Positions 22,454 through 54,900 of a stretch of 64,000 bases of DNA are shown in pieces; positions within the stretch are counted from its first letter, which is position 1, and every line of letters starts with the position of its first letter. The DNA comes from Gordius albopunctatus (lineage: Eukaryota). The position numbers and the translations under genes are program-made. Under the pieces are notes generated by a model, which was given only the letters and a program-made list of their open reading frames with translations, ran no database searches and had not been told where the DNA came from. The DNA is taken from positions 1,984,001 to 2,048,000 of the forward strand of contig OZ193909.1 of NCBI GenBank assembly GCA_964276515.1, read 5' to 3'.

Positions 22454-25400
22454 TTAATCTTCGTCTTCGTCATCTCTTGCCGTATCTTTAACATTTTTGT
22501 CCGCTTTATTTTTGATTTGTTCTTGCTGATTGTAAAAATCGGCGATCTACAATGTAATAACAAAAGCTATTGCATTAGATTCAACCAATTTTATAGTTAC
22601 CCCCAAAAGCTATAAACTAGTGATGTAAAACTCACACATAAACAGGGAAAAGGTATTTAGTCTGTTTTTCTTAATGGACCTCTGATAAATAGAGTCTCAG
22701 TTGAGCCTAGAGGTCGTCCAAATAAAGGCCAGCCGTTTTTACAGCGCCGCAAAACTTGAAAGTAAAAATATTAAACTCCGTTCATAAAACCTAACTTCTT
22801 CGTTCATAGTTAGGCCCATTTTTTAATCGCATAATAAAGGGGGGAAAATAAATGTTGAATGACGACTACATTATATAAAAATCAGGGTTAAAAATTGAGA
22901 TGAATAAAGGAAATCGTTTCTATACCTGGCTATTAGTAGTGGCATCCTCGGGTTTTTTGTCTTCGCGCAGTTTTAAATACCTGGGAAACCGGAGGGAAAT
23001 TCCCTTGTGAGCCTCAACCTTAAATAAATTAAGGATGGTCGAATTCAAAATTTTTGTTTTTCACAAACCGAAGATAATCCCTTTTTTACTGTTCATTGGA
23101 CGAAATTGCGAATTATGATAATTATAAAATCAAAAATACACAAATAAAAGAAAACCAAATGAGTTAAATGTTAAAAAATGGCTCTTCCCGATAAAAAATT
23201 ACAAAGATGATTTTCAAGGAAAAATTAATTTCTCCCTGAAATCAAGATTAAACAGAAATTAATTTGCAAAATAAATTATATAATGTTCTAACATTCATGG
23301 ACAACCTCTAATTAAATAAATTCAAAATAAATAAAATAAGCAATAACACAGGTCTACAAAAAAATTATCTGTGCCTGGATAGATATGGGGGCGGAAGAGA
23401 AGGAAAGAGTGATTTGTTAGTAAACATCGAATGTATAGTATGTACTCTAACTAATGCACTCCGTTTTCAGACATATTGGGACGAATTCTGGTAAACACGA
23501 ATAAATTTGTGAAACAAAAAATTAGGATGGATTTATAGATGAAACATTTAATCTACGAGAATAAATTAATATTTTTACGTATAAATTAAAAATGCCGTGG
23601 AAGAAAGAGTGATTTGTTAGTAAACATCGAATGTATAGTATGTACTCTAACTAATGCACTCCGTTTTCAGACATATTGGGACGAATTCTGGTAAACACGA
23701 ATAAATTTGTGAAACAAAAAATTAAGATGGATTTATAGATGAAACATTTAATCTACGAGAATAAATTAATATTTTTACGTATAAATTAAAAATGCCGTGG
23801 AAATATAACCTAAAAAAGGTTGAAATGGGCATTTTTTTACAACCTTAACCTCGTTTTCCTAAAAAATTGGAAGTTTTGAAGGAAAAAAACAACGAAAAAC
23901 ATACTTTTATTCAGCGCATCATTCTCTATCGGAATTATTAATCCGATTGCGAAATGCAATTACAAAGTCAATATTTGCACACCTGGGTAATTATATTATT
24001 TAAAAACAACAACAGATAGGGGCATATATACCAAGCCAATAGCTGCCCTGTGAACGGGTGAAATAGAAAGATCGGCAGCTTTCACTTCACATACGTACTG
24101 AGGTTCAAACCAATCGTTGGGTTGGTCCAGGCAACTATCGAAGGCGTAATATGATTTTGGACCTTTGATTTTGATTTGTGACAATTTTTGATTCAGTTCT
24201 TCCAAATCTTCATCTTTGAATCCGGTTCCCAACTTCGTATCAATCCCATATAAAGATATTTTATTGAATTGTCGGGAAAAAAGGTTAAAAGAAAACTGTG
24301 GGATAATTTACGTTTCATGTCATCCAAATGTGTGTGTGTTTTTTTTTTATCTATTTTTAAACATGAGATTTAACTTTTTTAAATAGCTAAGAAGGCACTG
24401 CTAAACAAAGGCCACACTAGTAATAAACTTATACAAAATAGAGCGGGGTCTCCATCAACGCTTTAAAGTATGCAAACCCATCGAGCAATTTTATACTTTG
24501 CGATATAATTTGATAATGATTCATATGAAAGTACGGCAATTTCATAAATTGACCACAAATACTCATAGACTGCTCATCAGCGTTAAATAAGTGAACCATT
24601 TTCCGCCATTCTTAAATGTGCACAATCAAGGGAAGGTTATTATAGATTATAGTGATTTTGGTTCATTAAAGTGCTTTTAAAACGTAAAGCAAAAGATCTT
24701 TGAACTAGCACTTTAACGCAATCTGAATTTTTTAAATATCCATTTATAAACATTCTTTTTTATTTATTAACTAACGAGGAAGGTAAATTGACTTTTTATG
24801 TTTAAACAATCGGGGACAGCGTAAAAACATGGGTGATTGTCAAATTCAAAATGGTGCATCATATTTTACCATATGAAACATATTAGGTGAGCAGTCTATG
24901 TAGTCTATACAAATACCAAAGAAACCTACCTTGGAACAACAAAATTTTAAAAGCATTAAACGAAGGCAAAAGGCACATTCTACTAGAGTTGTTAAATTGC
25001 TAACTTTCTTCAACTCCAGCTACCATCTGCTCGAGTTTCTGCTCGGTCCTCGAGCATTTTTATATGCTAATGTTCTACCCAGTGCACAGAACAGAGAGCG
25101 CATATTGTGCTAACGCGCATATTAAGCAACTCAGTGTGCGTGCTTGCGTCTGGAGTTTGAAGAAAGTTAGCAATTTAACAACTCTACATACTACGAACCT
25201 TGCGCAACCTTTATAATAATTAATCGATAAATATATTTAAGTAAAAGCTGAAACAGTCTAAATTCAAATCCTCTACGGTGTTTTACAAATCAATAATCAA
25301 TTGAAATAAGCCGATTTAAGAGTATGAAGATAGCAAAACAAGGCATTTAAATTGACCAAAATTTACAAAAAAATTACCCCAAAAACACTTTAAAATCCCG

Positions 25401-28400
25401 GTCAAAACAAGAAATATTTTAGTTACTTTACAAATGCTTTGATATTCTTCGTTTTCGGGGTCGTAGCAAGCTAATAGGAGTCCACCATAAACACCAGTTC
25501 TTTTTCCCTTCCCCGAATAACCGCCGATTATAACGAGGTCCATGGTATCGCCCAAATTATCGAGGTAATCTTTTTTGAGCTACAAATCACACCCAAAATG
25601 ATTCAATGAATATACCTTTAAAGATTTATAAACTAATGTTTATTTCAAATTTGTAATCTCAAAATTTGTGTCAGTTTTGATGTTGAATTTCTCTAAAAAA
25701 CTAGGAATAGGAGCTAAAAGCTGTAGACATGGGCCTAGCGTAGCCGGGATCGGAGAGGGGGTCAATTTGAAATTTTACTTAATAATTTAAATTTTGGATA
25801 GCCCTCTGGCTACCACCAAGTTTATAAGGGACATAATAGTAAAGCATAAAAAAATCAAGTATACCACCTAATACAAATATCGAATGGTTGCTGCATGACT
25901 TAATCATTTAGATAACACGACAGCCCCTTTAAAAAAGTGACTTTAGAATCACTACCCCTGCAAACATGTAAACTAGTGTAAAGCGACTCGTCGGTTTCGT
26001 TTGGTGAACCTTTATCCAATTTTGACTAAGCCGAGAGGTGGTTGACTAAGAAATGCCGAGGAAAAAGGCTTCGACTAAAACCAAAGCTCGACCAAATGAA
26101 ACCCAGCCAGCCGTTCCATCTGGAATGAAACTGATTCGCGTGATAAAAATACACCTCCTTTAAAGCGGAGAAGGTTGGTGAGATCGGAAACAGTGACTTC
26201 CACTTGGTTATTATAAACATCATTTTTTTGTTAGTAATTAGTTATAATATACCCGAGAACACTCAGATAATAATAATTAATTTGTACGCGTAATATTTCA
26301 ACTTCCATACGCTTGACTAATACTATTATATTAATTTCATCGTTTGTTGTAGTGATTATATAATTTAAAATACAAATATCTAAAATGGCCCCCAAATTAT
26401 TTCAGTGTTTTAGAGAAAAATAATTGTCGATGCACCAAGGTTAAGAAATGGTTTGATGTACAATTAAATTAATCCACTTGGTATAAAAAGGAGCAAAATA
26501 TAAATTGTATAGCAATCAGTATTCCAAAACTTATTATTTAGAGGGAAAAAGTGATTGAAAATTGGGGCAACCTTTAACCAGTTATTGGATCGCTTGGCAA
26601 TTTCGTAAGTTGAATTGGCGTTCAATGTTTTCACCATTAATCCTTCGCAATTGCCTATATAGAAATAATTTAAAAACCCCTATATAAAAGACACATTTAA
26701 GTATTCATTAACCTCTAAATCACTATACAGTGTCGGTCATTAAAACTCAAGCATAAAATTTAGTGCTAAATTAAGCAATTTTATCGACTTGATTACTAAT
26801 CTTTTTGACAAAGACGTATAGGAGTTCAAAAATTGTTGTTGTCATGTATTTATCAATTTAAAAATTTTTTTTTATTATAATGACTTTAAAATTTTTATTT
26901 TAATTAAATCAATATATGTTTGAAACAAATAATTATAATTATGATATAAAAAAATTTACATACACGACTAAAAAATATTAAAAACGCGCTATAACTAAAC
27001 GGATGGCATTGATCCGTGTATGGAAATCGTGTTGGATTTAACGATTTCCATTGTGATCTTTTGCCCAATAAAAAAGTATTCTTTGGGATCGTGTGTAATG
27101 GAGGTTATATATTTTGAAATTATTAACTTTTAATTATAACTTTATAAATTAGGAAGATAAAACGAAAACGAATTTTGGCAAAGCAAAAAAATTGTCTGCC
27201 TTTAACGGCTTCCTCCAAAAACTCCGTCACACAATCAGGGTCAGGTGGATTGTCCACGTGACGAGCGAATTCGAAACAACCGCGCGACGGGACAAAATGG
27301 TTCAACATCAACTTTCGCCTTTCCACCAGCGGTATCTTGACCAAAGACTTCCCATTCAAGTATAACAAATCGAATGCAAACACGCAAACCTGAATTTTTA
27401 TTTCCGACTGAACAGCGTCCTACACAAGTATAATTTTCGTTTGTTTTTTAAACAATGTTGCTGAAAGATAGTTATTAATTGATTGCATTACTATCGAAAG
27501 TAGGTTTACAACTATTATTAGGTTTGAAAAATAACGGAGTTCTAGCTATAAATTCGTTCGCAATTGGTTATTGCATGTTTAGAGTAGTGTTGTAAAAAGG
27601 CCTGGGTTTCACTCTCTTTTTCGAATTTTTACTAAGCCTAGAGGTAACCAAGGGTTGATCAAACAAAACAATGGTCTTTTTACAACACTAGTATACGGCA
27701 TAAAATGCGGAAATAATAATCTAGTATATTAATTGGCAAGCTATATATTGTATATAACTTAAATTGGCGTATGCATCTGCGGCCAATTAGGTATATTTTC
27801 AAAAAAATTTACGCACATTTCGTATAAATCTTAAATAAAATATATTAAAACCTTAATTTTTCACATACATATGCTATCAATCAATACAGTCAAAATTAGG
27901 GAAATTTCTATATTAGGTGGTGCACTAAAGCCAAAAATTCAAATCCGAAATTCAAATCATAGCATAATCAGACCTATGATCAAATCTAGGACACAATAAA
28001 CATGACAAAGACTTAAAAAAATCACACTTTGTCCTCCTCACCTCATAATAAAAAACGCTTGGATAAAATTATAGCAATGATTTTCAACCATGGCCGTAGC
28101 CGGAAAGTGGCAAGGAGGGGCGCCTGCCCCCCCCCTCTAAACTCAAATCTTAATAAAATTATGACTAAAATTCCCTCAAGATACAATCCTGGCTAATCCC
28201 ATGCTTTTAGCAACCGATCTCCTTCCTTCCTACCTTTGTTTTATCAATATTAATCGCCATATTCATATTAACTCGTTTTAACATTGAATATTACATGCAA
28301 AGTGCAGATTTATTAAAAAGTAGGCAAAACTTAGCTCAGTAATAACAATTTTTTTAGGAATTTACTCATCATAACCATGAAAGTAGCCAGCATTGGAATT

Positions 28401-31366
28401 AGAGGGGGGAGGCAATAATGATTTAGAGAAGGGGAGAAAAATCATCATTTTTTGAAATATCCGCCATAATTTTAATATCTAAATCTCAAAAAATTTTTGG
28501 ATTTAGAGGGGAGCAGCCCACACTCATCAAAAGAAAGAGAAAAAGTTTATGACCTTCCTTTTGCGGGTACTGAGAACTTGAAAGGGTAAAATTTGTTGTT
28601 TAACAGGATCCCAAGCCACGGTTTCCGTATCTAACACGAAGGACTTCACTTCACTTTCATCGTATACGCCGCTCTTCATCCTAGCTACCAGGTCAGGGTA
28701 TTTACTCGTGGTGTTCTCTTGGTTTCTACTGTACACATACATTTCACCCGATTCACTTAAATGTATCTTTAAGTTTGCAACACAAAAAATTTGCAAATTA
28801 AGGCATAATTTTAGTAGTAAAGATATTTAATTCATTTCAAAAATCATTCATTCTAGCAAATATAAAAGGTTATAATGAGCAATACGACATTCATCTTACA
28901 AGGAATATTTAAAAACTTGGGTTTATTATAGCATGAGGGGGGGGGGTTTGTGTTGCAAAAACGAAAGGTCTTGATTGGTCGACGTTTGGTCTGGTTTTCA
29001 AATTTGGACTAAGCCTAAAGGTCGAGCAAACAAAGTCAACCCGTTTTTACAACACTACTACTGTGAACAACTTAAATATCTAATTGAATATGAGAATATT
29101 AATCTTGTAAAATATCACAAGAGATTGAAAAAATTTAGGGCTAAATTGTTTCTATGACGTCCTCTAAGATATGAATAAATTTAGATAGTTAGTCTAACTA
29201 AGCCTATGATTTAGTAAAATTTATTAAATATTTAAGATGGCGAACCTGGGCCCTTTCACCATCGTATTTCCATTCGAATGTTAATTCGGTGTTGTCAAAT
29301 TTCTTAAAAAGTTCTTGAATACCCTTTGTTGGTTGGGCTAGCATAGGCTCCACCGGAATTCCTCAAAAATATTTACAAAAGATTTTTAGCATAAAAAGGC
29401 ATTTGAAATTTAAAAAAAATAAATAAATTGCATATATTAGATAATGCGCAAACCAGGTTGAATTTTGCAAAGGTCAGGTAAATTGGCTATTCCATCTTTT
29501 AAGATGTGTGGTATGATTAAATCAAAGGAGGGGCATTCTCTGCATATAAATATTTAAAAATATATATGTATGTTAAAAATTGTAAAATATAAAAAGAATA
29601 AAAAATTTATGGAAAACATGAATTTTAGATATTACGAAAAAGCTGATTTAAGGATTTGTGTGTTTTCGTCAACCTTCTTTTTGATAGCGTCTGCAGTCCC
29701 TGTTATCACATAGATTTAAAAAAAAGTCCATGAACAAACAATATAATAATATTAACACTAAAAATAAATTAATTTTAAACATTTATCTATAAAATTCATT
29801 CATGTTAATAAAGTCTGCCTAATTTTTAAAATTAATTTAATTTAATAAAAAAAAAGTTTGTAATCATTTGTAAAAATTACCCTTTTCATTAGGTGTAAAA
29901 GCCTGAGCCAAAGCAGCTATTACACTTTGCTGAGCCAAACCAATCCTCATTTTACCCAGGACAAATCTTATCATATATCTGGCTTCTGAATTTTGGCATG
30001 CTATAAACAATGATTTCACTTTCTGTAATTTAAGTGTTGTACTCTAAAAGTAATATGTAAATTAAGCTATAATTAATTTGAAAGTCATTTGACAACAACA
30101 TTTTATGTCAAAAAGATTTATTTTACAAGTTATTAGCTGAAATCTTGTGTATTCTAATCATATGAAAAATATATTTAAGGCATATTCATATAATTCAAAT
30201 TTTTATAAATTAGGTGAATAGTTTAAATATTAAAAAAATAAAAAATACATTACAAATGTCAATATTATTGTATAATACATACTGAATTGCCACTAATTTG
30301 TGAAATTTCTTTAAAGGTTTTGAAAACTTTGTCAACTGTAAGCCTGGGTGGTTTAACCATTGTGCTTTGATTAGATTTACTACTTTCAGCAACCAAGCCT
30401 AGATCACCTTTTACATTCAAATCTTGTTTGATTGCATTTATATTTCTCCCTTAATAAAGTATAAAAAGTTTTATTAGCATTATTTAATCATAAACCAAGT
30501 CCATGAATTATAATTTTCACTACTGGTGATATTCCAAATTGTTTTAAAAAAATTGAAAAGTCACTAAACAATATTTTAAAGAAAGCTGATTTATTATATG
30601 CATTGATTTATTTTGAATTTTAAAATAATAAAGCTAATAATTTAAAATGTTCAAATACCTGTTGCCTCTCCTATCATTTTGATAATAACAGATTCACCTA
30701 TGCCTAACTCTTTGCCTTCATATGCCGGAGCTATTATGTTTAAGCATAAGTACAAAGAAGGCAGAAGATCAAATGGAGAAAGAGCTATAGTGGACTTAAA
30801 ATAATTGCTTAGGATTGATATGATCTTTAACCTATTATTAAAATAATTCTTTAAATAAAAGTGATATTACCTAGAAGATTCTTTTTCAATCTCCTCTAAT
30901 GTTCTAGCTAAAGCAGCATAGGGAATTCTGAATAGTTTTATTCAAAATAAGATAAAAAATTGATGTAAATGCTAACTTTTGTCCTGATTCCCACACAGCA
31001 TCTGAAATTATATCATAATTTGAAACATTTGGATTATACTCATCAATGTTTTTAATGTATCTTCACTATTTATTTGTCAAAACATAATTTATTTTACTTA
31101 GTGCTCAATGAAGAGGAGTTTTCACCTATAATGGAATGTATTTTAATGCCATTTTTATCCTCGACAACATCCTTTTTTAGCTTTGATTATATATGATAAT
31201 TACAGATCTTTTAATAATATATACTTTTTTTACAGGACTACTTCTAGTAGAGCTTATGGCTCGATCATTATCATTTTCCGATAGAATCTTCTTGCTAAAA
31301 AAAGCCCTTAAAACAAAGTAAATAAATTAAGTGCAAATATAATTACGTTATTTTATTTTGAGCCAT
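22454..31366 (-). CDS. LIG1: DNA ligase 1, multi-exon
   Basis: N-terminal PIP box [78 protein letters not shown] and [16 protein letters not shown]. The last exon ends DEDED* at 22454. Confidence 0.97.
23403..23802. repeat. Near-perfect 200-bp tandem duplication in a LIG1 intron, inside a CACAGGTCTACAAAAAA-ended element (related ends at 3963, 6782, 38780)
   Basis: 23403-23601 repeats at +200 with one visible mismatch. Confidence 0.9.
24564..24900. mobile_element. MITE with CATAGACTGCTCA TIRs (P-like terminus)
   Basis: 13-bp perfect inverted termini. Confidence 0.55.
24984..25186. mobile_element. hAT MITE family A, copy 4
   Basis: Same TIRs; TSD CATTCTAC/CATACTAC. Confidence 0.9.
27585..27690. 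mobile_element. Short MITE with TAGTGTTGTAAAAAG TIRs (related copies near 22618 and 28950)
   Basis: 15-bp inverted termini; copies share an ACTAAGCCTA(G/A)AGGT core. Confidence 0.55.
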
Positions 31367-32590: not shown

Positions 32591-32855
32591 ATGGTGGTCA
32601 GTCCTTTCAGCATTCGTTTCCAATTGTCTATATATTTACAAAGACCTTTCTTTATCTTGTGGACTTTCATATCGTGCCGTATTTTATGTGTCCAGGTAAG
32701 CTTGGGTCTTCCTCTCCTTCGTTTTCCTGCGAAATTTACCATCTCAATTTTCTTTCCGACGTAGGTATCGTCTCTTCTTTCGACATGGCCAAACTATCTT
32801 AGTCTGTTTGTTATAAGCTTTGTCGTAATAGATGTAGTATCCAAAATTCTTCTTC
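32591..32855 (-). mobile_element. RTE LINE 3' fragment
   Basis: FGHVERR...GKRRRGRPKLTW motif typical of the RTE ORF C-terminus. Confidence 0.8.
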
Positions 32856-33968: not shown

Positions 33969-34823
33969 TTAAATAATTTATAGTATGTGCATAATTCAAG
34001 TGGTTTACATTTATATTTTTGTTTACTGAATCCTACTTTGTTTTCGATGGGTTTAAATATTTTTTATTCGTTGAGTATTGCCATCTGTTCGGAATATTGA
34101 GGAATGCCGAATTGTTTTTCATGGAATTAACGGCGTGATTTTAGATCCCACTTCTGACAAGTGTTGTGACGGGCGCGCTAGTCTTAAGAAAAAGAGCCAC
34201 ACCCACACTGTTAGTCTCCTTTTCTGGTGAAGACATTGAGTGTGAATGTGTTAAATACCGACCATTAGCTAGTCTATTATTTTTTCATAAGGACCCGATG
34301 GACACTTTGATATATGCTAAGGGGGTGTTATTAGCTAGTTGTTATTGTCATCACAACATCATCATCAACACGATGTGTGCTGTTGTTGTGCCTGCAGTGA
34401 AGTCAAACTTGTTAACCTCTAAGATATCCAATATTAAATTAAAGACTTTGCTAAGCTAGTACGAAACCATTACCGGACAGGACATTCAACATTTATTATA
34501 ACAATTAGGCCAGGGGCGTACGCAGGGTTGTATAATTTTTTTTTTTGGGGGGGGGGGTATAAGGGGAAGGGAAGGATCATAACAGACATTTTATTAAAAA
34601 AAAATATTAACTAATTAAATTATTTACAGAATGTTCCAGCTATTTAAACATACTCTATATTTTAAATTAGCAGACGACAATTTATTTATTTTATTAGTCA
34701 GGGTATTGACGGCGGACGAGAATATTCTTTCGTTAGGGACTGACCTAGGGGCTTGTCTCAAATAATCCTGTGTGGTATTTATTTTTTAAACTTCTTTTTT
34801 TAACGCCAAATTATCCTTGTTTC

Positions 34824-37800
34824 TTCTTCTTCTTCTTTATCAGTTATTTGGTCCCACATTGGTGGGGTTTGTTTTGATGAGTCTCTTCCATCTTGACCGG
34901 GTTAGTGCCATGTCTTGACTAATCTCTTTAGTTTCCATAACTTTATCGACTTGCCCTTTCCACGTGACACGGGGTCGTCCTCTTCCTCTCTTCCCCGGTA
35001 TTTCCATGTCTAGCACTTTTTGATTTACGTCATCCGTGTTCCTTCTTAGTATATGCCCATACCACCTTAGCCGATTTTCGTTAATCATGTCCGCCTAAGG
35101 TTGAATACCCATTTTTGTCATGAGAAAGTCATTCGTCATATGGTCGAGCTTAGTATACCCCAAGCTCCACCGTATCATTCTCATCTCCGTGGCTTGTAAT
35201 AGCTTTCCTTCCGTGCTGTTTAATGCCCATGTTTCACTTACATAGAGTAACACCGGTCTTACGATGGATTTGTAAGCTTTGCTCTTCAACCATATTAGCA
35301 TTTTCTTGTCGCACATTACACCGGATATACTTCGCCATTTAAGCCATCCTTTTTGAATCCGGGCATTGATTTCAGTTGCGCAACCTCCCTCTTGATGTAG
35401 CATAGAGCTGAGGTAAGTAAACCTGTCTACTTTTGGGTACTTTAGGTGGTCATTCAGCGATGGGGTGCTTGTACCGTTCATTTCCATGTATACCGTTTTT
35501 CGATCGTTGACCTTTAAACCATATCCAGCTAAGCGCTTTGATCACTTTTCTGCTTCTTCGAATACCTTCTCCCTTGTTTCCTCGCATAGTACTATATCAT
35601 CGGCATATAGCATACACCATGGTGATGGCTTTTGAAAGTCCCTCGTTATCGTGTCTATAATTATATTAAATAAAAAGGGACTTAAAGCGGAGCCTTGATG
35701 TAATCCAATATTAACCCGAAAAGGTTTAGAGTCTCCAACTGTCGTCCTAACGCAAGAGTTTGAAGCTTCATAGATATTTTTCATAAGCCGTATATATGCG
35801 TCAGGGATATTTTGTTTCCTCAGGCACCACCATATTAAATCGCGGGGGACCGTGTCATAAGCTTTCTCCAAGTCGATAAAAACCATATGTAGGTCTTTCC
35901 TCTTTTCACCATACTTATCCATCATTTGTCTTAGGGCGAAGATTGGGTCGATTGTGGATTTGCCGGCCACGAATTCGAATTGATTAGCCGATATTTCCAC
36001 CTCGTTTTTCAGCCTTGTTACTAAGATTCTTTCCATAAGCTTCAAGGAGTGGCAAGTTAGCTTGATACCTCTGTAATTGCCGCAGTCCTGAGGGTCTCCT
36101 TTGCCTTTGAATAAGGGTATAATCGTGCTTGCTCTCCATTGATTAGGGATTCGCTCTTTTTCCATAGGTATTCCATCTGGGCCATTTGCTTTTCCTTTTC
36201 TGCATCTTCTTCATTTGTGTCCTAACTTCATCCTTCTGAAAGAGTTCGACCCTATTTATATTTGGCTCAATTTCGGGAAGGGAATCCTTGTCATTTGCAA
36301 TATTCATAAGTTTCTTAAAATATACTTTCCACCTTTCCATCACTTCCTTCGGCTTGAATAAGGTTTGACCCTTCTCGCTTCTGACTATTTTAAGAACTCC
36401 GACATCTCGACTTTTCTTCTCCCTTATCTTGGCCAATTTGTACATAAGCCTATCGCCCCCTTTATGATCCAGTTTGTTTGCCATCTCGGTGTACGCAGCA
36501 TTCTTCGCTTTTGCAACGGCCTTTTTTGCGACCCTCTTTGGGTCCCCGTACTTTTGATAATCCTCCGACTTTTTTGATTTATGCCACCGTCTATATAGAT
36601 TTTTCTTTATTTCGATGAAATCTTTAACCGATTGATCCCACCACCATAGTTCCCTATTCATAGCTTTGCCTCCTTTGGTCTGTCCTAGAACACGAATCGC
36701 TGTTTCCTTAATGTCCTTAGATAGCGTCTCCCAATCGTCGTCTACGTCCCTTTGCAACTTCCTTGCACCCAATAGTGAGCAGGTTTTTTGATGGTATTCT
36801 TTGTTCGTCGACGTATCCTTTAGCCTTTTGTATCGAATTCGAGGTTCATAGACCTTTCTTCTTTCGGGAAATACTCTTCTGTCAAGATCCATAACAAGGT
36901 AACGATGTTGTCTGGCGATTTCTTCTCCCGGTATTACTTTGCAATCCTTGATACTCCATAAGTCCTTTCGCCGTATAAGCAAATACTCGATTTGACTAAA
37001 ATGCTTCCCACTTCTATAAGTCACAATATTATCTTCGCGCTTTTGAAAATAGGTGTTAACGATCGCCATGTCATATGCTTGGGATACTTGGAGAAGTTTT
37101 TCCCCTTCTTTGTTCTTCAGACCATGCCCATAGCCTCCATGATTGCGTTCATACCCAAGGCGATCTTTCCCTACGTGAGCGTTGAAATCGGCCCCAATAA
37201 CTAGCCTTTCTTCCTGTCGGATTCCTTGTATTTCCTTTTCCAATGAATCGAAGAATATGTCTTTCTCTGATTCTGAACACCCAATTTGGGGAGCATACGG
37301 GCACATAACGGTTAGGAGGCCCCCTTGATCCGCAATCTTCAACCACATTAGCCTGTCGGAACAACACTTGACTTCCACCACCTTGTCGTTGAACGATTCG
37401 CTTAGAACGATACCCACCCCGTTTCTACGATTTCGTGACCTGCTGTAGAAAAGCTTGTATCCCTCTCCTAATTCCCGAGCTTTCGTTCCGTTCCACCTCG
37501 TCTCTTGTAGGCAGGCGATGTGTACCTTTCTTCTTTTTAACATCTATGCGACCTCGATGCTCTTCCCCGTCAACGTTCCCACATTCCAGCACGTAATTCG
37601 CATTCTTTCCACAACTAGTTTCCTTAACCGCCTTCGTTGTGAGTTAGGCAGTAACCCTAGTGTATTTTTCACATTGCACGGGCGGGGTATGCAGTGCGCG
37701 TCGTTTGTGGAGGACGCCCTAGCCTTTTCTTGTAAAATCTCGTTTGAAACTATCATAAATTTTGGAGTTGATTTTTATAGCCGGTTTCCGACCTGACGCC

Positions 37801-37848
37801 AACCCTCCACTTTTTGCACACGGACTTGGGACCGTCGTAGGTAGTGTT
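34824..37848 (-). mobile_element. Full-length RTE-clade LINE (APE endonuclease + RT), disabled by stops and a frameshift
   Basis: TCWNVGTL, ACLQET, GADFNAHVG, FIDLEKAYD, GLHQGSALSP and YADD motifs, and a (GAA)n tail. 17-bp TSD CAAATTATCCTT(G/T)TTTC at 34807 and 37849. In-frame stops at 37544, 35542 and 35095; frameshift near 36170. Confidence 0.95.
37797..37848 (-). ncRNA. Twister ribozyme (P1 type, 3' cleavage product) forming the RTE 5' end
   Basis: AACACUACCUACGACGGUCCCAAGUCCGUGUGCAAAAAGUGGAGGGUUGGCG aligns almost base for base with the rice Osa-1-4 twister as recalled. P2 CACU/AGUG, P4 ACGG/CCGU, T1 CCC/GGG and T2 AC/GU are intact, and the catalytic A and G are present. Confidence 0.85.
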
Positions 37849-40438
37849 CAAATTATCCTTTTTTCATTTCCGATAAATTAATTGTAAATATTCGTGGCAT
37901 AGGTTAGGGAATATAAAATTTTTTATTACATTCTATTTGTTATTAAAAATAAAAATTAAACAACCAACAATTCGGGCTCGCTGCTGGGCCCAATCGGTTA
38001 AGGGGCAGGCTACCGTAAGAAAAATCGTTTTTATCCGATAAAATAGTTACAAAAAAAATTAATTATGAAAATTTTATTACCCCCTACTTCAAAAAATCCT
38101 TCTTATGTTTCTAGGTTTTTATAAGTATCTTGAAGCCTTTGATGTAACTAAACTATAATATTTTAACCTATTTAATTTAGTTATTAATAAAAACACTTTT
38201 CAGGAATTTTCCGCCCCCCCTCTCATTTAAGCCACTGATTTATCGACAATGTTGCTATGTTAGAAAAAAGTAAATAGTACTTTCTACTATTTACCCCCTT
38301 ATGCCTTATTTGTTTCATCAATGTGATGGTAAATGTAACTAATTTAATGGCACATATGGCCGTTCTATTTTCTACAATTTAGGACCATGGGGGAGGGAAT
38401 TAGTAAAAAAAGGGACCTTACACTAGGCAAGCGCGTATTACGAGGTACCTTTATATGGGTGTGGCTTCGTAGTCTCTTTCTTCCCATTAAGGCATGGGTG
38501 TAAAATGGCGCGCTGCATAGCAACACTAATTCTGACACAAATTGTCAAATTCGGAATTTGTGGAATTCGACGTTGTGATATTGCAAATTGTACATATAAA
38601 CTAAGTTATTTATTATATTTATTAACCGCGACAAAAATAATCCGCGAATATCTATATATTTTGATATTTCGTTTCATATCTTTTTCGATTTATAATTATA
38701 GTGTACAAGCGAAATTATTGATATGTTTATAACGGTTTTGGATCAAAAATGATTCCTATTTTTATTTTCCCTCTGATTACACAGGTCTACAAAAAAACAT
38801 GCCGAAATCCGACCAATAATTCTGATAGAGAATTGTGCGCTGAAAAATATTATGCTTTTAGTTATTTTCTAAAATTAACAGTTTTTTATTAAATATATAT
38901 ATATTTGTTAAATCAAATTTTATAGCTTGTCTTGTATAATAACATATGAGTGTCCCTTGGGGCATGTAATATTTTTTTAATATGTTTATTTGCAATCCTT
39001 AGCTTTAATATATATTATAAACATACATACTTAATATGAGTTCTGATTATGTAGTTATAACTAAAGCAACTTCAAATTTTGCAATAACGTATCCTTTCTG
39101 ATCCGATAATATTTTAAGTCGGTGCCTAATTAACCAAAATACCTACATAAATTTGGCTACAATGGCTGAAAATTTTTTCAACCACAGCGATTTGTGTGTC
39201 CGCCGAATATTCGAAAATACTGTAATAGATTTATCATGATTCTGCCAGGAGTTACCCTTGAACACAAGCTACACCCCCTTCTTAAGCAATAAGTCATATT
39301 ATGCTTTTTTTGACATTTATGATATCTTTGACGCTATAAAGGTAGGGTTCTGAGATGCATTCTAATCCACTAAATTTTTTGTAAATGTATTAATTTGGCA
39401 AGATTGGTACATATATGAGCATAAGGTTCAATAATAAATGAATATTTTGTGGGAAAATTATTTTAAAACTGGATCAAGTGAATATTTCAGGGCATAATAT
39501 TAGGTCTTACACTATAACGGAATAGCTTCTTATTTGAATGTAAGAGTATTTGTTATAAAATTATATATGTGTAATTTATTAAAAACTTAACTCCTATAAT
39601 CTTTTTCTAGTAACAACGCTACTTTTATTGATGTTTTTACAACATTGTAAGTGTGCCATTAATTATCTATGTTATGAATAATAAGAAATATCCACTCGCA
39701 CCCTTATGGTTTATAATTTAAAAAACATGTATTAATGAATTGATAATAATTATAGTAGAGGAAAATTCTTGTCTTATTTATCCAAAGGCATTACTTGTTT
39801 TGTTGTTGCCAATGCTAGCAAAGGGTCCCCGCTAATCCAAATATGTAACTAAGCTAAATACAAGTGTAAATGTATATCTAGTAGACCAGATAGCTATAAT
39901 ACAAATGCAAGTTGATATTTTTATACAAAATTGTCTTTTTAATAGGAAGGTTATATTTATTAACTATCTTTATACTGTGAAGTGAAGTAGTGTACAAGCG
40001 ATATTAATTACATGTTTATAAAGGTTTTAGATAAAAAGAGATTCGCCATATTTATATTCCCCTGAATTATTTAGATTAAAAAAACTTATATAGTATAAAA
40101 AAATTCTAAAGTCGAGACGAGATTTTCTATGACGAGACTAGATCGAAACACTAGCGAGTGGCGATAATAGTTAGACAAAAAAATTTGAGAGAAAAACAAA
40201 AAATCTTTACAAATAGTAATTTTTTATAATGATAAATTGCAAAATGTTATTTTGGTAGAATTACATTTAAACTTGATTTTGCATAGATGTTCAACAAATT
40301 TAATTTTAACCGGTATATTTATATCAAGTGCATAAGGAATGATAACACAAAATGGTTTTGTAAATGAAACTTAAATTTACAATTTGCAAATATGGTATCA
40401 AATATAAAGTAATAACAAATATATGGGCAAAGCATGAT

Positions 40439-43400
40439 TCAATTTAGCCTGGCAATGCGTTGTTGAAGGAGAGCCCAAGCTTTAGCTATCTAAATTTAAT
40501 AATAAATATATCGTTATAATTAATTTTAAACGTCACGGTAAATATAATTTGTGAGTTTCAAAAATTAATTCTTAGTCTCAAAATATTTTTGTTAATAAAC
40601 TCATTATAAATGCGTTTTTAATTTCCTCATTATGCGAAATTTAGTATAAAAGTTGAAATTTAAAACGACAAGTTCAGTTAATTATTATTTTCTTCATTTT
40701 AAACAAATGAGTAACTTTAAAATTTATATTAATAAATTGTAAGATAATAATTACTAAAAAGCGAGAAAAATCAGGTCCGTATTGAGTTGTAAGTAAAACG
40801 TCGGCATAAGGAATTCTACTTTCGGGCCTTGGTTGAGCGTCAACTCTAAATTCTGCTTTTTCTTTCGATATTTTATTCCTCTCCATCAATCTTTCAATCG
40901 CCTAAAATCATTTCATATGTTGACTAATTCGGTCGTATTTTAAAATAAATTTAAGCGGTTAAAGTGAAATTGCGATGTTAAAAATTGGTATTTACGGTTT
41001 AATTAATATTAAATTCGCTAGAAATCCACGATTTCATATAAGTTAATATTTTAAAATCTAATATAGTAATTTATTTAGATGGAGAGAGAGAAACACGGTG
41101 GAATAAGTAGTCCATGTAGTAAAGGACAATATATAAGTCTACGTTCTTATTAGAGCTCATGACAGAGCTTCGAGATGGATGTTATAAACAACTTAAGATG
41201 TTATGCTACCGTGGCAAATAATCAATTTGTTTAGAAGTTAAATGCAAACGATTCCATTTTTCTGGCTATAAAATTCCATATAAATCCTTAATGATCTTAT
41301 ATATTTCCTATAGAACGAAGAGCGGGTGGTTGGTATTTCGCCATCAACAATTTCTGATAGAAATTATATCACAAAGCCAGGTTCAAATAGCCGAGCGTGC
41401 CGCGAATCATTTTTAAGATGGGGGAAGAACTTAGGCGTCCTCTTGTTAGTGTAATTAATTCACAAGGTTCAATATAATGCAAACAAATGTTTTTAAAAAG
41501 GCAGTTTCGCAACGACAAAACATAGAATGGGCTCAAGTTGTATTGTAATTAATAATGACCTTAAAATGACGAGAAGTTGCCTAAGGATGTTTGGAGACGG
41601 ATATAAATAGTAGTTTAGTAGACAAGAAAAGCACAAAAACGGAATTAAATTAAACAAGCTTCTCATTTCTGGAAAAAGTGGGCGACTCATGACATTGAAA
41701 CTCAGCATAGAAGGTCAACTAATCAATGAGGTGTCGGGATTTACTCTTCAAACTGATTGAACCGATGAAGAAAAGGAAGATTTGGGGAAAGAGTTGAACG
41801 AAAATGTGTAATATACACATAGTAGTGGTGTAAAGGGCGCGCATTATGGTGCGCATAAAATAGCCACACCCATATTGAAAGTGTCCTTTTCTTTTGAGGA
41901 CTTACCATGTGGGTGTGTGCAAACCGACGACTAGTATATTGTTTTGTTATAGCGAGTCGGATGTGCTAGAGATATGCAATGGGCCTGCTTAGGTCAGTCA
42001 GCCCGCCAGTTATAAAAATTTACGAGCCCGGACCCGGCCCGTATGATTTTTTTTGTATTTTTTTAAATTTTAATTTTTTTTACAGAAATGATAAACTATA
42101 AGTATGTATTACAAATTTAATAATCAATATGTAAAAATAATAAAGTATCAATAAATCCGGTCAGACGAGTTCTCATCTGTTAAAAGGCAACATACAAGAA
42201 AAATATTTTTTTACTAGCGGCACTTGTAGCCGGGTTACATAAAACCATATATACCAAAGTAACCTTTGAAACCTTGCTTAAGGTCAACATATTTTTAATA
42301 TGGCTTCTTGGCTTTACGGCCAAAATCTTTTAGGTACCCACCAAATGCAAAATCGGTTTTAAATCTTCTTCTACCCATCACTGGCAATTCTAGAAACTTT
42401 CAAAAAAGGTGAATAAAGCTTAACAATTTGTTGATTTTATTGTCTTTTGAAATAATTGTCGAGCCTTTGTTAACATAATTTTTAATTTATATCTAGGAAT
42501 TTTATAATAAAATATATTGTTTTTAACAGAATTAGTGACTACTTGCTTCTCAATTATTCCGTGGCGGGCCTATTTAATAAATAATAGGGTAGGCCCGACC
42601 CGAGGCTCAGAATTCTGGGGCCGGTTCTAGGGTCACACCTGCAGGTCTCTAGTTGAGGCCAGAGGATTAATCGGAGCTCAAAATCTATAAACTTTTTTGC
42701 CCCCTCCCCAATCTAAATCCTGGCTATGCCCGTGCTCGCCCGATTGTAATATTTATTTCCTTTAACAGTGGAGGTTTTAAAAGACGCGCTATATAATAAC
42801 ACTAATACCTAAAGTAGATGGATGGAATATCTTACATTTTTTATCAACACTTGCACACGGAATGAAAAAATCTATAAAGCAGACGAAAATATCATTTACC
42901 ATGTCACGTGGTACGAAGGAAAGCCAAACCTCGTGACACATTTTTGACCAATCGGCTTCGATTAATAGTGATGCCTCTACAAACACCACGCGCTCGCGTC
43001 GTACGATCGCTTCATTAATTTTTCGAGAAACCATCTTAGCTAATTTCGGCCAAACCTTACGATTCAAAATTTGTCTCTTCTCCTGAACATAATTTAAATA
43101 TTTTTCATTTCAAACTTGACATATTTTCTTACCATTCGGCTGTATATCATTAATCGTTTGGACAGTATATTTTACTTTTATGATTCTTGCTAATTTTAAT
43201 CTTATATAATATAACCTCGATACTTTTAGGCTTATAAAATATAAATGTTAATTTAATATTATTTATGTAAAATGCTATAACAGTTCATTTTTGCAATATC
43301 AATCTTTAAAAAAACCTATGCTTATCCACGAGGGTTGGGAGCAAATGGTGTAGTAATGATTAAGGTACGGGCAAAAATAGGATGATCCAGAAATATAACA

Positions 43401-46118
43401 AATTAACATTAAGGGGAGGGGAAAATTACCTCTCCTTGCCCCCCCCCCACCTCTTTTAAACACACGTTCTCATTTATTTTTTCCAAATTAAAAGGTTTAT
43501 CGATTCAATAACACGAAAATATAAAAAAAGGTGGAAAACCTTTTAAATGTAACGCGTCAATTAAGCATGTAAAAATCGCAAAAAAACAAAAAACATCAAA
43601 AAAATTAAAATTGAAATTTAAAGAAAAAACTTCGTTTTCAAACACGACCGCAGCCAGCTTCCATCGATCTGTTTTGCCTCTAGGATTCAGAATATCGGAT
43701 CCGAAAAGCTTGACCAACTCCGTGGTCACCCCGGTGAGGAATTGGCCAGAGTCTTCGTATAGGCCGTGGGTTAAGTGATCGCAATCCACACAACAGACGT
43801 CTTTATTTTGTTGCGCTAAGAGATGCGCTAACGTAGATTTACCGCTACATATCCCACCGGTCAGACCAATTATGTAGGGTGGGTATCTGAGGGTCGTTAA
43901 TCTTTCCATTTTGGGATTTGCTCTTTCTTCCTCGACCTACTAAAATGATTGGTCTTTTGCTTACTTTACTTATAAATCCCTATAAGAGACCATAAAAGCC
44001 CGGCCCGGCCAAATGTCTTAAATTTTAATTTTTGGACAGGACCTCGAGGAAAAGAACTTATGAACAAATTTAAATGTTAAAAGGGAGTGCAGTGTAGTTG
44101 CTATATTTAATCAAACACACTACGGTGATAAGATTCGGGCGATTCGGGCATAATAAAATTAAAAACATATTATATTATTTTGTTACCTTTTTATTAGATT
44201 GTATATCGAGAATGCTTAAAATTTTAAAAAAATATAATTTTGCCACCCCTTCCAAAATTATTTTTCCAATCTTTGCACGACTCCATTTCTTTAAGATCCT
44301 TAGCTACGTTGAAAGAATTGAAATATTTATATTTATGTAGCCTTTTCATTGTTCGCAATAATCATGTTTGTCATCTAAACTTAAAACATAGAGTTGTTAA
44401 ATTGCTAACTTTATTCAAAATGTGAGATGGGAAAAATTTACTTTACGATCAATGAAGGTTCCCAGCAACGCTTTTCTGATGTGGGACGAGCTGAGCTTGT
44501 TCTTAAGCCTGTCTTCTTCGCTTAAACTCTGAAAATTAAATAATTTTTCTCCACCTTCAAGTATATAATCTACAACCTCCAAATGAAGTGGCTTCATATT
44601 CTAGTTAAAGATAAAATAAATTCAGTAATTTAATGAAAAAAACCAAAAGCATTGCTATGTTGAAGTTTATTTTTAAGGTTTTTTTGGGAAGACAATTAAG
44701 ATTCTGAGACATATTTTGTATTTATAATATTTTAGTTAGAGATTAAGTTTATATGGTACTAAAATTAAAGATTATGAATGTTAATTAACCTGGGCAAAGA
44801 TTAAAATAAAAATTGATTTAGATTAAATTCATGTTTAATATCAAGGCCAAAGAACAAGATTCCCTTTGAATATTAAAGCAATAGATATGTGTTTAGAGAT
44901 TTAAATTTGAAGTTCATATAGATTCAAGATACGTTTTTTATTCTCTCTTCATTAATCTTTTTGCCTCCTTTAATGGTCTCGTTTGTTACAACACAACACT
45001 CAACTTCAGGCATAAAAATGGCAGGACCATAAGTATCATACAATGGCACAATTAAATACCTTAAAATCCATCACAAAATAATTAAATTTATGTAAGTCAT
45101 TTACAGCTAAACACATTTATATTATAAATTATACTAATAAAACTCTACAAATAAAAAAACTATTTTTGCATTCAGTTATAAATTTCTTATCTACCTCAAT
45201 TTTTTCAACCATTTATTTTAAAGCACAAAATTTAATTTGATAACAGGCTAAGCATAAAATATAATTTTATTTCTGAGCTTCTTTATAACAATGTGAAGAT
45301 ACTATTTCTTTACAATTATAAGATACCTTAAGGATGGGTTGACACTTTGCAAATAGTTGCGCACAGCATCAATCCTATAATCAATTGGCTGAATTAGTTC
45401 ACGTAATTCTTTTTCTTCAAATATATTATATATTAGGAGAATAATTATTTTACTTTTAATCATTGGCCCATCACTAACACCACAGACAACTAAACCTTTT
45501 GCAATTGATGATGCATAGGTTAATAAATGTTTATGACCCTCGTGCAATCTATCAAAAGTACCACCAAGTGCCACTCCTTCATATTTTGGAAAATTTTTGG
45601 CATCTTTGCTACTACATGTAAAACAGAGAAATTCTTGTTGTTACATTCACCAGAAGTGTTCATTCAATGACAGTGAGTTAAGTGAAAATATTTAAAAAAA
45701 TTTAACAAGCTTAAGAAATTTATGTAAATCCTAACTTTTGTCCTGTTTCCCACACAGTATTTGAAATTATATCATAATTTGAAACATTTGGATTATATTG
45801 ATAAATGTTTTTAATGTATCTTAACTATATATTTGTTTAAACATTATTTATTTTACTTAGTGCTCAATGGAGAAGAGTTTTCACATATAATTGAAAATGT
45901 CTTAATGTCATTTTTCTCCTCTACAACATTCTTTTTTAGCTTTATTTTACTTTATAATTACATATCTTTTACAAATAAAATACTTTTTTACAGGACTACT
46001 TTTAGTAAAGCTTATGGCTCGATCATTATCATTTTCCGAAAGAATCTTTTTGGCACTTAAACAAAGTAAGTAAACAAATTAAATACAAATATAATTACGT
46101 TCTTTTATTTTGCGCCAT
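40439..46118 (-). CDS. COASY: Bifunctional CoA synthase (PPAT + dephospho-CoA kinase), copy A, with LIG1-derived 5' exons
   Basis: GGTFDRLHEGH, DTYGP, VTNET..G..IN, LSSSHIR, IGLTGGICSGKST, EASLLIEADW..CHEVW and final exon IAKAWALLQQRIARLN*. Exons from 45611 downward are open. 45725-46197 is a copy of LIG1 30965-31445. The 5' structure is inferred. Confidence 0.85.
41967..42651 (-). mobile_element. Deleted hAT derivative in a COASY-A intron (orthologous copy in COASY-B at about 53690-57144)
   Basis: TAGAGATATGCA / TGCAGGTCTCTA termini, GCCCG repeats, and a degenerate transposase tail LCNPATSAAS. Confidence 0.7.
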
Positions 46119-46400: not shown

Positions 46401-47046
46401 GATCGAGATTGTGGAGAGGTTGAAGGGTTTCTTGTTAAGTCTCGATCCTTTCATTAGTGTCATTTGGTGACGAATATAGTGCCCAATTTATCCAGTTGAG
46501 TTATAACCTTGACTCCGGTACTACAGGGTTTAGGGGGAGGAAAAAAATTCGCCTCCCTTGAAATTCGAAGTCACCAGTTTTAGTGAAAGGTGTTGGAATA
46601 TAATTTATTAAGGGGAAATAATAACAATGATAACGAATCTATAAATGGCGAGTTTATATATCGATAGATAACAATAACATTCAAATGAAAGTTAATTCTG
46701 TGTGTGTATTCTTTCTATTTTCACCTTGTGCGTATTACAACCAAATCTCTTTCAAGATAACTGTAATTTGTTTCCCTACAGACTAATAAAACGGTGCCTT
46801 ATCAACTCGCCGAAAACAATCTTCTCGAATTCACCCTGGGATGGGATATTAACGAATATTTCCCCATTATCATAAAGAAGCCCCTAAATTGAGTAACTTT
46901 TATACTAATTATCAATTTTATTATAAAAAACACCTAAATAATAACTTTAATCCAGAATTGAATGATTAATATGCTTTTGGGGGGGGGGGGACATTTTCTA
47001 ATTGGGGGAAATTTTTTAACATTGGGACATTCAATTCGGCGACTTA

Positions 47047-48060
47047 ATATGGTGGTCCCTTAGAGCCAGAAATATACCCGAAGGATATGTTCGACTTATC
47101 AAGGAAATGTATAATGGCGCGGTTGTATCTGTTAGGACTACCGTAGGAGTAACGAAACCCTTCCGAATAATGATCGGACTACATCAAGGATCAGCGTTAA
47201 GCCCATTCTTGTTTAATCTAATTATGGATACAATAACAAAGGACTTGCACAAGCCAGCCCCTTGGACTATGCTATATGCCGACGATATTGTCCTATGCGA
47301 TGAAACAAGAGAAGGGGTTTTTCATCAGGCGAAAAAATGGTCAGAACGTTTTTCGGAATTCGGGTTAAAGGTCAGCGAGAAGAAAACGGTTTACATGCAA
47401 ACGATGGGCGGTAGTCCGCGAATGCACAAAAATGACGGTCCAATGTACACGGAGGTTGATAAGTTCATATATCTTGGCTCGCTATTACATCAAGAGGGAG
47501 GATGTACCGCCGAAGTCCATTCTCGGATCAAGAAAGCATGGCTCAAGTGGCGCAGCATCTCCGGTGTCATGTGTGACAAGAAGATACCAATTTGGTTGAA
47601 AAGCAAGGCGTACAAAACCATCGTGCTACCGGTCTTGCTTTACGGGAGCGAAACATGGTCTGTAACCACCGCGGAGGAGAAACTCTTGCAAGTCACGGAA
47701 ATGAGAATGGTGCGATGGAGCTTAGGCTACACCAAGCTGGATCGCATGACGAACGAATCCTTGATAACAAAGATGGGTATACAAGCGACTAAGGACTTCT
47801 TAAGAGAAAATCGACTGCGGTGGTACGGCTATGTATTACGAAGAGACCAATACAATGTCACACGCCGACCGCTGGAGATGGACGTGCCTGGAAGAAGAGA
47901 AAGGGGCAGACCACGTGCCACCTGGAAACGACTGGTCGAAAAGGATATGGACGTCAAACAGATGGAAATTGGCATGGCATTTACGCGACTCAGATGAAAG
48001 AGGCTGCTGAGAACGTACCCCACGTCCGTGGGATTTTCAACAGGATAAAGAAGAAGAAGA
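47047..48060 (+). mobile_element. 5'-truncated RTE LINE (RT C-terminal half)
   Basis: ORF 47107-47997 with GLHQGSALSP, YADD, LLYGSETW and RGRPR; (GAA)n tail; clearly related to 34824-37848. Confidence 0.93.
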
Positions 48061-48355
48061 TATACAATAATGAAGTCATACATGCAAGGCTGAAGTTTTC
48101 TCGAATTAGATATTTAAAAGTATAATAAAAATGTTACAGTATACGGTCAAAAGTATAGGTGTTTAACAAAATATTTAAATTAAATAAATAATATTTAAAT
48201 TATTATCACGTGGTCGATCATAGAAGCATATTTTTAATAATTATCCATCCTTCAATTAATTATTTTATTATATTAAAGAAAATTGTATTTCAAATAAATC
48301 AGCTAACTAGAATTAGTCGGATTTGATGACTAAAACAGAATTCGCATTTGGTTTG

Positions 48356-51918: not shown

Positions 51919-54900
51919 TCAATTTAGTCTGGCAATGCGTTTTTGCAGGAGGGCCCAAGCTTTAGATATCTAAATTTAATAATAAATATTTTCGTTATGG
52001 TTAATTATAAATGTTATGATTTATAAATTCAACCTATAAAATTCAAAAATTATACTTTGCTGATAAAATATTTTTATAAATAAACTCATTATAAATGCGC
52101 TTTTAATTTCCTCAATATGCTAAATATAATAAAAGTTGAGATTTGTAATAACAAGTTTTTTTTCGTTTTAATGGAATATTAACTTTAAAATTTATATGGA
52201 TGTATTGTAAGATAATAATTACTAATTCGCGAGAAAAATCAGGTCCGTATTCGGTCGTAAGTAAAACGTCAGCATAAGGAATTCTACTTTCGGCCCTTGG
52301 TTGAGCGTCAACTCTCAATTCTGCTTCTTCTTTCGAAATTTTATTCCTTTCCATCAATCTTTCAATCGCCTAAAATTATTTCATAATTTGACTAATTCGG
52401 TCGTATTAAAAAATAAATTTAATCAGTTAAACTGAAGTTGCGAAGTTTAAAATTAATGTCTAATTTGGTCCTTCTATATAAAAATGACTTGTGGGACAAA
52501 AAAATAATTAATTTTAAACTGGTCAGAAGTCCATGAATCCATATAAGTTTATTACTTTTAAAAATAATAACTATTTATATTAATTTATTTAGAGAGAGAG
52601 AGAAACAAGGTGGAATATGTGCACAATGTAGTGTAAGACAAATATAAAATTTTTGGTTCATATTGGCTTGTCAAAGGCGTTGGTATAGCCTTTGTCTTTG
52701 AACAAGAGCTAGCGGGTTCAAATCCCGCTTTCTCAACTTTCCTTTAAAATATATCACATCGTCAACACGGCTAACAGGCCTGGATAGCCGAGCATCACCC
52801 CTCATCCAAATATTTAAAGAAGCTGATCACCTTAGTGTAACAAACAGCTATTGCAAATATAGGCTCATCAGTAAGACAGAGCTTCGAGATGGATGTTTAT
52901 AAAAACTAAATTAACTTATAAACAATTTAAGGTGTTATACTACTGTGGTAAATAATCAATTTGTTTAGAAATTAAATGCAAACGATTCCCTTTTCTGGAT
53001 ATAAAATTCTAAATCCGTGGTGATCTTGTATATATATTTCATTATAACGAAGAGCGGGCGGATGAAATTTCGCTAACAACAATTTCTAATGGAAATTATA
53101 CACAAAGCCAGGTCTAAATAGCCGAGCGCTACGGCAAATGGCATGGTAGTCGTCAGTGCAATTAAGTCACATGGTTGAACATACTGCAAACAAAAAAGGC
53201 AGTTTCTTAACAACAAAACTTAGAATGGGCTCGAGTAGTATAGTAATAATGACCATAAAATAACGAAAAGTTGCCTATACAGCATGTATTCTTAAATCTA
53301 AACGGAAGAACATAATCAAGAATGTTTTGAGACAAATATGCATAGTAATTTAGTGGACAAGAAAATTACAAAAACGGAATGGAATTAGACCAGCTTCTCG
53401 TCTCTGAGCAAAAGTGGCCAACTCATACATTGAAACTCAGCATAGAAGGTACACTAATCAATGAAGTGACGGAATTTACTCTTCAAACTGATTGAACCTA
53501 CGAAGAAAATGAAGATTTGCGGAAATAGTTGAACGAAACAATGTGCAATATACATAATTGTGACGTAAAGGGAGCGCCGAAAGTCTGCGAGAGTGATATT
53601 ATTGTGCGCATAAAATAGCCCCGCCCACGTCGAAAGTGTCCTTTCCTTTTGAAGACTTTCTTTTGTCATAGAGAGTGGGATATGTTGAAGACCCGCAACG
53701 GGCCTGTTTAGGTCAGTCAGCCGCCCGTTTAAAAATTTAAAAGCCCGGACCCGTTAAAATATTAAATTATACACCCGGGCCCGGCTCAATAATTTTATAG
53801 AAAGCCCAGGTCAAGTCCGTATAATTTTTTTCTTCTTTTTTTAGATTTTATTTTTTTTACAGAAATGATAAACTATATGTATGTGTTACAAATTTTAATA
53901 ATCAATATGTGAAAATAATAAATTATCAATAAAATCCGGTCAGACGAGTTCTCTGACTGATAAATGGCGACCTAATTGATAGCGATTAAGAAGCCAGACA
54001 ATTTACTAAGACCTATCGCTATTGGGGGAGTTTTTAGGAGGATTATTTCTAAAATAATATGATATAAAATCAAACCGATCCTTTCCACTAACCTAAGTCC
54101 ACATCAATTAGGTTTTGGAATAAAGGGTGGCTGCGAAGCTGCTAGTCATGCCGCTAGGCTAGCCCTCGAAGGCATACCATCGGATCATTGCATGGTCAAA
54201 CTAGACTTTGCCAACGCTTTTAATAGCCTTCGTAGAGATGTCCTTATCGAAAATTTTCTCGAGAAATTTCCGGAGTTCCATAACTACATCTTATTAAGTT
54301 ATGGCTCAACATCCTTTTTAAGATTTGGGGATTTTAAAATAAATTCATCTGAAGGTATCCAACAAGGTGACCCATTGGGTCCGCCATTATTTTGCTCAGG
54401 CATCCAATGTTTAGTGGAAAAAATATCGCACGAATGCGACCTAACACTAAATATTTGGTACTTAGACGATGCCACCCTTTGTGGTCATCCTCGCGAAGTT
54501 TTTAAAGCCATCAAAATTATAAAGGAGTTCGAACCAATTTTAAAACTAAAACTAAACGAGACCAAATGTGAGATCTTTCAATCCCCTGATTACTCCTTAT
54601 ATCCACACATTACCCCTTTTTTTAGCAATCGAGAAAGACGCTATGTGCCATCTTGGATCGCCTATAGGTGGTAGAGTTGGACTCGCAACTTATTTGGAGA
54701 AAAATCTCTCTATTTTAAACTCAAAATTAGATCTCTTAAAGTGTTTGCCTTCACACCACGGTTTTTACATAATGAAAAACTATTTTAATATTTCAAAAAT
54801 TCAAGACTGTTTTCGCTCTTCAAGTGCTTTTTTACACTCGGAAATTTTAAACCTCTTCGAACAGAATATTAAATCTATTTTATAATCTATTTTAAATATA

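Follow-up and report, generated by a model that had tools for sequence, protein, structure and literature searches.

The question raised by this locus is what fixes the 5' end of an RTE LINE copy on the minus strand of the window, i.e., the whole 64,000-nt stretch of Gordius albopunctatus DNA that was analysed (contig OZ193909.1, positions 1,984,001 to 2,048,000). A first-pass annotation had attributed this end to a twister ribozyme, as in Schistosoma, with activity gated by the insertion site. According to the analysis it is highly probable that the element is a broken RTE copy whose first base coincides with the position at which a twister is predicted to cut, this twister likely trimming the element's RNA from host transcripts, and RNA processing by self-cleavage is regarded as likely.

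Features and boundaries of the element

The RTE LINE copy comprises 3,030 bp, starts at 37848 on the minus strand and is bounded by a 12-bp TSD. Its features are as follows.

37849..37860, minus: 5' TSD, host DNA, ending in the -1 base (G); bases -2 to -5 would provide the 5' strand of P1
37799..37848, minus: predicted type-P1 twister without a P1 5' strand of its own (match to Rfam RF03160)
37848-47, minus: A+1/A+2 of the twister
37846-43 with 37811-08, minus: P2, 4 of 4 pairs
37842-41 with 37825-24, minus: T2, 2 of 2 pairs, one compensatory change
37835-32 with 37823-20, minus: P4, 4 of 4 pairs
37831-24, minus: L4 of the twister
37807-03, minus: GAGGG, with the catalytic (general-base) G at 37807
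37802-799, minus: UUGG, the P1 3' strand
37772..37797, minus: conserved 5' UTR segment, a predicted hairpin with a bulged A followed by UAUAAAA
36143..37756, minus: 5' part of the RTE ORF (APE endonuclease), ATG at 37756, in-frame stop at 37546-37544
near 36200-36160, minus: frameshift in the 5' part of the RTE ORF, about 22 codons missing
34840..36210, minus: 3' part of the RTE ORF (reverse transcriptase with intact YADD, C-terminus), stops at 35544-35542 and 35097-35095
34819..34839, minus: very short 3' UTR (21 nt) with a (GAA)n tail at its end
34807..34818, minus: 3' TSD, second copy of the 12-mer

The 12-mer occurs exactly twice in the window (37860-37849 and 34818-34807), and its upstream copy directly adjoins 37848, which is both the first A of AAC and the A+1 of the twister; the probability of a TSD abutting this base by chance is about 1e-5 (50-base search range). 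The first base of the element is, as had been claimed, the nucleotide 3' of the scissile position, with the TSD ending at -1. The copy described as full-length has an ORF broken by three stops and a frameshift. The span originally given for the ribozyme (37797..37865) is corrected to 37848-37799 (from 37853 if the host P1 bases are counted).

In the RTE clade the 3' UTR is short and closes with AT-rich short tandem repeats (PMC1291365), and the 3' end features of the clade are present here (21-nt UTR, (GAA)n and 12-bp TSD). Regarding the coding region, Pfam RVT_1 was matched with 100.6 bits (E 1.3e-28), and Exo_endo_phos with 19.8 bits, under the cut-off of 24.5. The ORF is collinear with homologues of 969-991 aa (39-46%) and has a single APE-then-RT layout; proteins from fish, nematodes, moths and plants are among the homologues at 33-41% identity, and no Schistosoma name occurs among the matches listed in either homologue search. 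The three internal stops and the frameshift mean that the window copy is dead and cannot be autonomous. The stop at 37546 is not family-wide, most family contigs having a different base at that position.

In a tree of 40 rows the window reverse transcriptase and a truncated sister located at 47 kb form a pair (100/100), and both fall within a 16-row set (96/90) alongside fish, plant and moth proteins. The neighbours are fish, plant, lepidopteran and nematode endonuclease-RT proteins, which we take to be RTE elements, and none of the rows is a Repbase-named RTE. The RTE label is suggested by the architecture together with this presumed identity of the homologues, in a tree without a named Repbase element.

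The predicted twister

The covariance-model search proposed in the first-pass annotation yielded a match to Rfam twister-P1 (RF03160) at 37853-37799 on the minus strand, which extends over all 68 model positions with 33.2 bits and E 1.6e-5 (401 bases searched) and remains below the gathering score of 67.2. Because of this low score, a scan of the whole window at the gathering cut-off returned no match. A second twister was not found in the window.

P2 and the T1 strands are intact, as are A+1/A+2 and the catalytic G (37807); the pseudoknots T1 and T2 are seen as complementarity only, in T1 between CCC of L4 and GGG of GAGGG. The two covarying pairs reported previously were confirmed, one in T2 (G-C to A-U) and one in P4 (C-G to A-U), each altered on both sides, although the comparison was made with the Rfam consensus and not with Osa-1-4 itself. 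P3 is shrunk to one pair. The P1 5' strand is indeed left to the host and lies in the TSD, where it makes 1 of 4 pairs with UUGG, with G as the -1 base, in agreement with the earlier remark that the flank pairs poorly with the P1 3' strand. Judged from its sequence, the ribozyme is filed as a P1-less T-variant and not as a canonical four-stem twister, since tolerance of a defective P1 is what defines the T-variant class and P1 is reported to be dispensable for activity.

Nested folding, a method unable to model pseudoknots, recovered P2 and P4 both in the 50-nt core and in the 95-nt UTR, with a z-score that was not significant; for a 75-nt fragment the minimum-energy fold was non-native and paired L4 (CCAA) with UUGG, a pairing which might act as an off-switch.

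The 5' junction across the family

Family copies were counted through assembled contigs of six public runs, which may include the source of the window itself. Loose ends behind 37848 were seen in at least 100, 89, 111 and 113 contigs (four runs, two studies); the flanks of these contigs were AT-rich and unrelated to each other (agreement 0.44-0.45). When a narrower stretch was considered, at least 110, 124, 3 and 1 contigs ended at 37848 (four runs from four studies). Neighbouring positions listed (37849, 37847, 37845 and 37839) were represented by 11-18 contigs, so that 37848 is the commonest 5' junction of the family among the positions listed, with at least 89-124 contigs per deep run. The summed depth fell several hundred-fold across the junction; in run X1 it was 3.4 million before and about 4,900 past it. 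The family is high-copy.

In two deep runs the differences listed inside the ribozyme occurred at about 3% or less, except at 37816 (about 30%), which lies in the variable J4/2 linker; in the UTR and ORF several subfamily-level differences among contigs were found. The junction at 37848 and the small number of core variants indicate that the copies do not extend further 5', a point which had been named as a check and in which the other copies stop at the same base, and that the core looks conserved.

These data also bear on the idea that the twister is a relic which does not cleave, the 5' boundary now being set by an internal promoter or by a stop of reverse transcription at a structured end. 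The low Rfam score (33.2 vs 67.2), the predicted competing non-native folds and a metagenome relative which retains the downstream UTR segment without a twister (L085) would fit such a relic. All catalytic and pseudoknot positions are kept, however, with two compensatory pair changes, the frequent family variants spare the core and fall in the linker, and the boundary coincides with the scissile bond to the base; a relic is accordingly considered very improbable.

Proposed processing and genomic setting

The preferred reading, i.e., self-cleavage, is drawn in all its steps from Perere-3 and from the chemistry of twisters. Source copies would be transcribed by read-through from host promoters. 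The twister would cut after the host base at -1, directly before A+1, and release a 5'-OH RNA starting with AAC; target-primed reverse transcription would copy the RNA up to that end, and full-length insertions would begin at A+1. With its TSD, each insertion would gain a new -1 base and a new 5' strand of P1. The flank probably has little bearing on whether cleavage occurs; it may tune the rate and not switch it. If transcribed, the window copy would probably still cleave, yet it cannot make its own protein.

The element is flanked by CoA-synthase exons, which reach down to about 40.7 kb, and by DNA-ligase exons from 30.9 kb onward, all on one strand with it, in host DNA of 32% GC with intron-containing genes. 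Lying about 2.8 kb upstream of the element, the CoA-synthase exons are a possible source of read-through. A search with a fucosyltransferase exon of the host returned no match.

Comparison with known ribozyme-headed elements

HDV-like ribozymes lie entirely 3' of their cut, whereas the twister, a different ribozyme class, has a P1 strand 5' of it. HDV-like ribozymes head R2, L1Tc, Baggins and some RTE elements (PMC6765202). They share with the arrangement predicted for the window that an element lacking a promoter is released from a co-transcript by a self-cleaving RNA, which sets the element's 5' end (PMC6765202).

The parallel with Schistosoma drawn in the first-pass annotation was borne out. 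Perere-3 of Schistosoma mansoni, which belongs to the RTE clade, is headed by twister T-variants for which cleavage was reported in vitro and in yeast, and a model was proposed in which the TSD supplies P1 (Liu 2021, PMC8501958). The anatomy is the same in both elements, i.e., a type-P1 twister at the 5' end (predicted in the window) with the TSD adjoining the AA of the cleavage site, a P1 5' strand taken from the TSD, a single APE-RT ORF and a tail of short tandem repeats. UUGG as the P1 3' strand is common to the window and to five of the seven rows of Table 1 of that paper (PMC8501958). In contrast to the long P3 of Perere-3, the window twister has a minimal P3 (one C-G pair closing three bases); T2 and P4 pairs are altered, the tail is (GAA)n, and the distance from the ribozyme to the ATG is about 40 nt, compared with 112-147 nt in Perere-3. 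In the tree the window protein falls together with RTEs of fish, plants and Lepidoptera, and a match to DUF6451 was not found in it; Perere-3 is absent from the tree.

According to a review from 2020, RTE-superfamily elements have conserved, truncated but competent twisters at their 5' ends for 5' processing (PMC7761336), which predicts exactly the arrangement of the window; in the part of the text available the statement is cited as in preparation and comes without data. A later full survey of twisters in retroelements was not found among the papers searched, and the supplement of PMC11662667, with the contexts of about 2,600 twisters, may record RTE contexts. The mechanism is already published, and the arrangement is known from Schistosoma and stated for the RTE superfamily. 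The window adds a clean case of a twister at an RTE 5' end outside Schistosoma, base-exact in roughly a hundred junctions of each run. The RTE branch concerned has relatives in fish, plants and moths. The case supports a claim so far printed only as "in preparation".

Twister-headed elements in metagenome loci

A search of metagenomes with a twister pattern ending in UUGG (L4 CCAA and UUGG fixed) gave 79 loci, many of them redundant, and none in viral_contigs. An RTE-like ORF was found downstream on the same strand in 23 of the 79 loci (23 of the 62 having at least 600 nt downstream), and matches located elsewhere in two of the 79. Among 39 same-family locus pairs, identity was 0.23-0.46 at -15..-1 vs 0.74-1.0 from +1 onward, where two A positions are forced by the filter. 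TSDs were sought in seven near-complete metagenome elements, with a single candidate (L004, 8 bp, 3 nt off); the 60 distinct flanks (window included) contained three short elements with TSD candidates of 10-11 bp at -1, +1 and +3.

In the tree, six metagenome loci fall in a DUF6451-bearing branch and are 27-33% identical to the window reverse transcriptase, while L029 and the window belong to the other RTE branch; the branch supports of 84/69 and 88/88 are below the starred level. No metagenome locus matched the Perere-3 start-codon motif of Liu 2021 above background, so the DUF6451 branch is tied to Perere-3 only via the (TAAG)n-like tail of L004.

An independent protein-based search gave 47 loci, of which 10 were scanned and seven were RTE-like. 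Two of these seven have a twister upstream (L083, 63.9 bits; L084, 55.3 bits), with a longer P3 than the window and UUG after GAGGG. No twister was found in the other five, two of which (L086 and L126) appear 5'-truncated by eye; at the head of L085 Rfam finds no ribozyme, and L089 gave a weak, non-significant HDV-like match (E 2.4). The sequences point to two deep RTE branches with twister-headed members, and this, together with an apparently conserved UTR module after the ribozyme which occurs once without it, is what is newly added here.

Proposed role of the insertion site

It had been proposed that the window copy may cleave weakly and that activity is gated by the insertion site; the latter is already the published model of Liu 2021 (PMC8501958). 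In its strong form, the activity of a copy would depend on the pairing of its TSD with UUGG, and the window copy, with just 1 of 4 P1 pairs, would cleave poorly. Reduced rates of some T-variants led to the gating proposal in the first place (PMC8501958), but imperfections of P1 or changes at -1 left cleavage unreduced among about 1,900 natural twisters (McKinley 2024, PMC11662667), mini-twisters without P1 cleave at a near wild-type rate (PMC5408937) and a G at -1 is compatible with cleavage (Liu 2021, PMC8501958). The expectation of weak cleavage finds no support in these reports, in which P1 is dispensable and G at -1 cleaves.

Natural flanks likewise speak against gating. A cleavage site was called in 78 loci (window included); in 41 of them the core was intact and the flank at least 25 nt long, and these comprised 27 independent flanks, with T (12), C (7), A (5) or G (3) at -1. 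Enrichment of P1 pairing was not detected, the 27 flanks having a mean of 2.00 pairs with UUGG vs 2.00 in 432 control windows, and duplex energies did not distinguish flanks from controls (p = 0.27). The majority flank of the family (AAUU before A+1) pairs poorly as well. Genomic copies are products and not parents, and such flank statistics would miss selection acting on a few source copies. Taken together, strong gating appears unlikely, and largely flank-independent cleavage is preferred. With many natural flanks on one ribozyme, the family offers an easy test of Liu's model.

A conserved segment downstream of the ribozyme

The segment downstream of the ribozyme is conserved as far as about 37772. 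In the window and seven relatives, GAGGG is followed by GGUUG, then by a predicted hairpin containing a bulged A, and then by UAAAA; the pairs of the hairpin hold in 85% of cells, with covariation not above that of shuffles (219/500). The same segment is present in L085, in which a twister was not detectable.

For 25 distinct elements folded with a constrained core, downstream pairing of the two Gs in UUGG was predicted with mean probabilities of 0.63 and 0.67, compared with 0.44 and 0.45 after shuffling (p = 0.03, for elements that are related, the window itself being little above its own shuffles) and with 0.15 and 0.18 for pairing with the host flank. In the full-UTR fold of the window copy, 37805-37799 is paired to 37771-37765 (3% of the ensemble). 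Downstream pairing of UUGG, as modelled, is a lead and not a result. A tentative and rather doubtful extension would be that in RTE elements the twister serves as an exchangeable cap for an older 5' UTR module (GGUUG, hairpin, UAAAA), UUG(G), usually taken for the P1 3' strand, forming the start of this module and pairing downstream in place of the host P1. If true, cleavage would be independent of the insertion site in at least two deep RTE branches, and the TSD-gating model would be overturned.

Genomic context of the main RTE element

The other mobile elements and the host gene exons that were annotated in the window are listed below.

Features around the main RTE element (window coordinates)
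5931-6413, minus strand: fucosyltransferase (GT10) exon
10431-10540: small RTE fragment
12290-13846, minus strand: Hermes-type transposase ORF
23999-30866, minus strand: ATP-dependent DNA ligase gene, exons (Pfam N, M and C domains)
32635-32832: small RTE fragment
~40680-45700, minus strand: CoA-synthase gene, tandem copy (cytidylyltransferase-like PPAT exon and CoaE exons)
47039-48069, plus strand: 5'-truncated RTE, sister of the main element
~52100-61850, minus strand: CoA-synthase gene, tandem copy (same exon types)
54063-55809, plus strand: unrelated RT element
63064-63333, plus strand: Thoc5-like exon

The sister RTE showed a DNA identity of 69% with the main element and is likewise terminated by a GAA-repeat tail; the ribozyme is absent from this truncated copy. 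Regarding the two small fragments, one was 89% identical to the endonuclease region of the main element, and the other matched a C-terminal region. The identity between the tandem CoA-synthase copies was 70-87%, in blocks. Seven nucleotides of the main element's UUGG region (P1 3' strand of the twister) recur, probably by chance, in host bases around the end of the 3' TSD (34807-34800, minus strand).

RTE relatives outside the window

RTE-like LINE sequences were found in prokaryotic genome records (loci L080-L113), which probably reflects eukaryotic contamination of the bins. One RTE relative (L085:100-224) kept the conserved post-twister segment in its 5' UTR, with a different, possibly structured head; this head yielded no Rfam match and may stem from exchange of the ribozyme, from chimerism or from decay. 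At another locus a weak match to drz-agam-1 (HDV-like; 15.2 bits, E 2.4) was located 5' of an RTE-like ORF (L089:1502-1552). Stretches of 175-306 bp headed by a twister, with candidate TSDs of 10-11 bp close to the cleavage site, occurred at three loci (L025, L055 and L062) and are possibly short non-autonomous derivatives.
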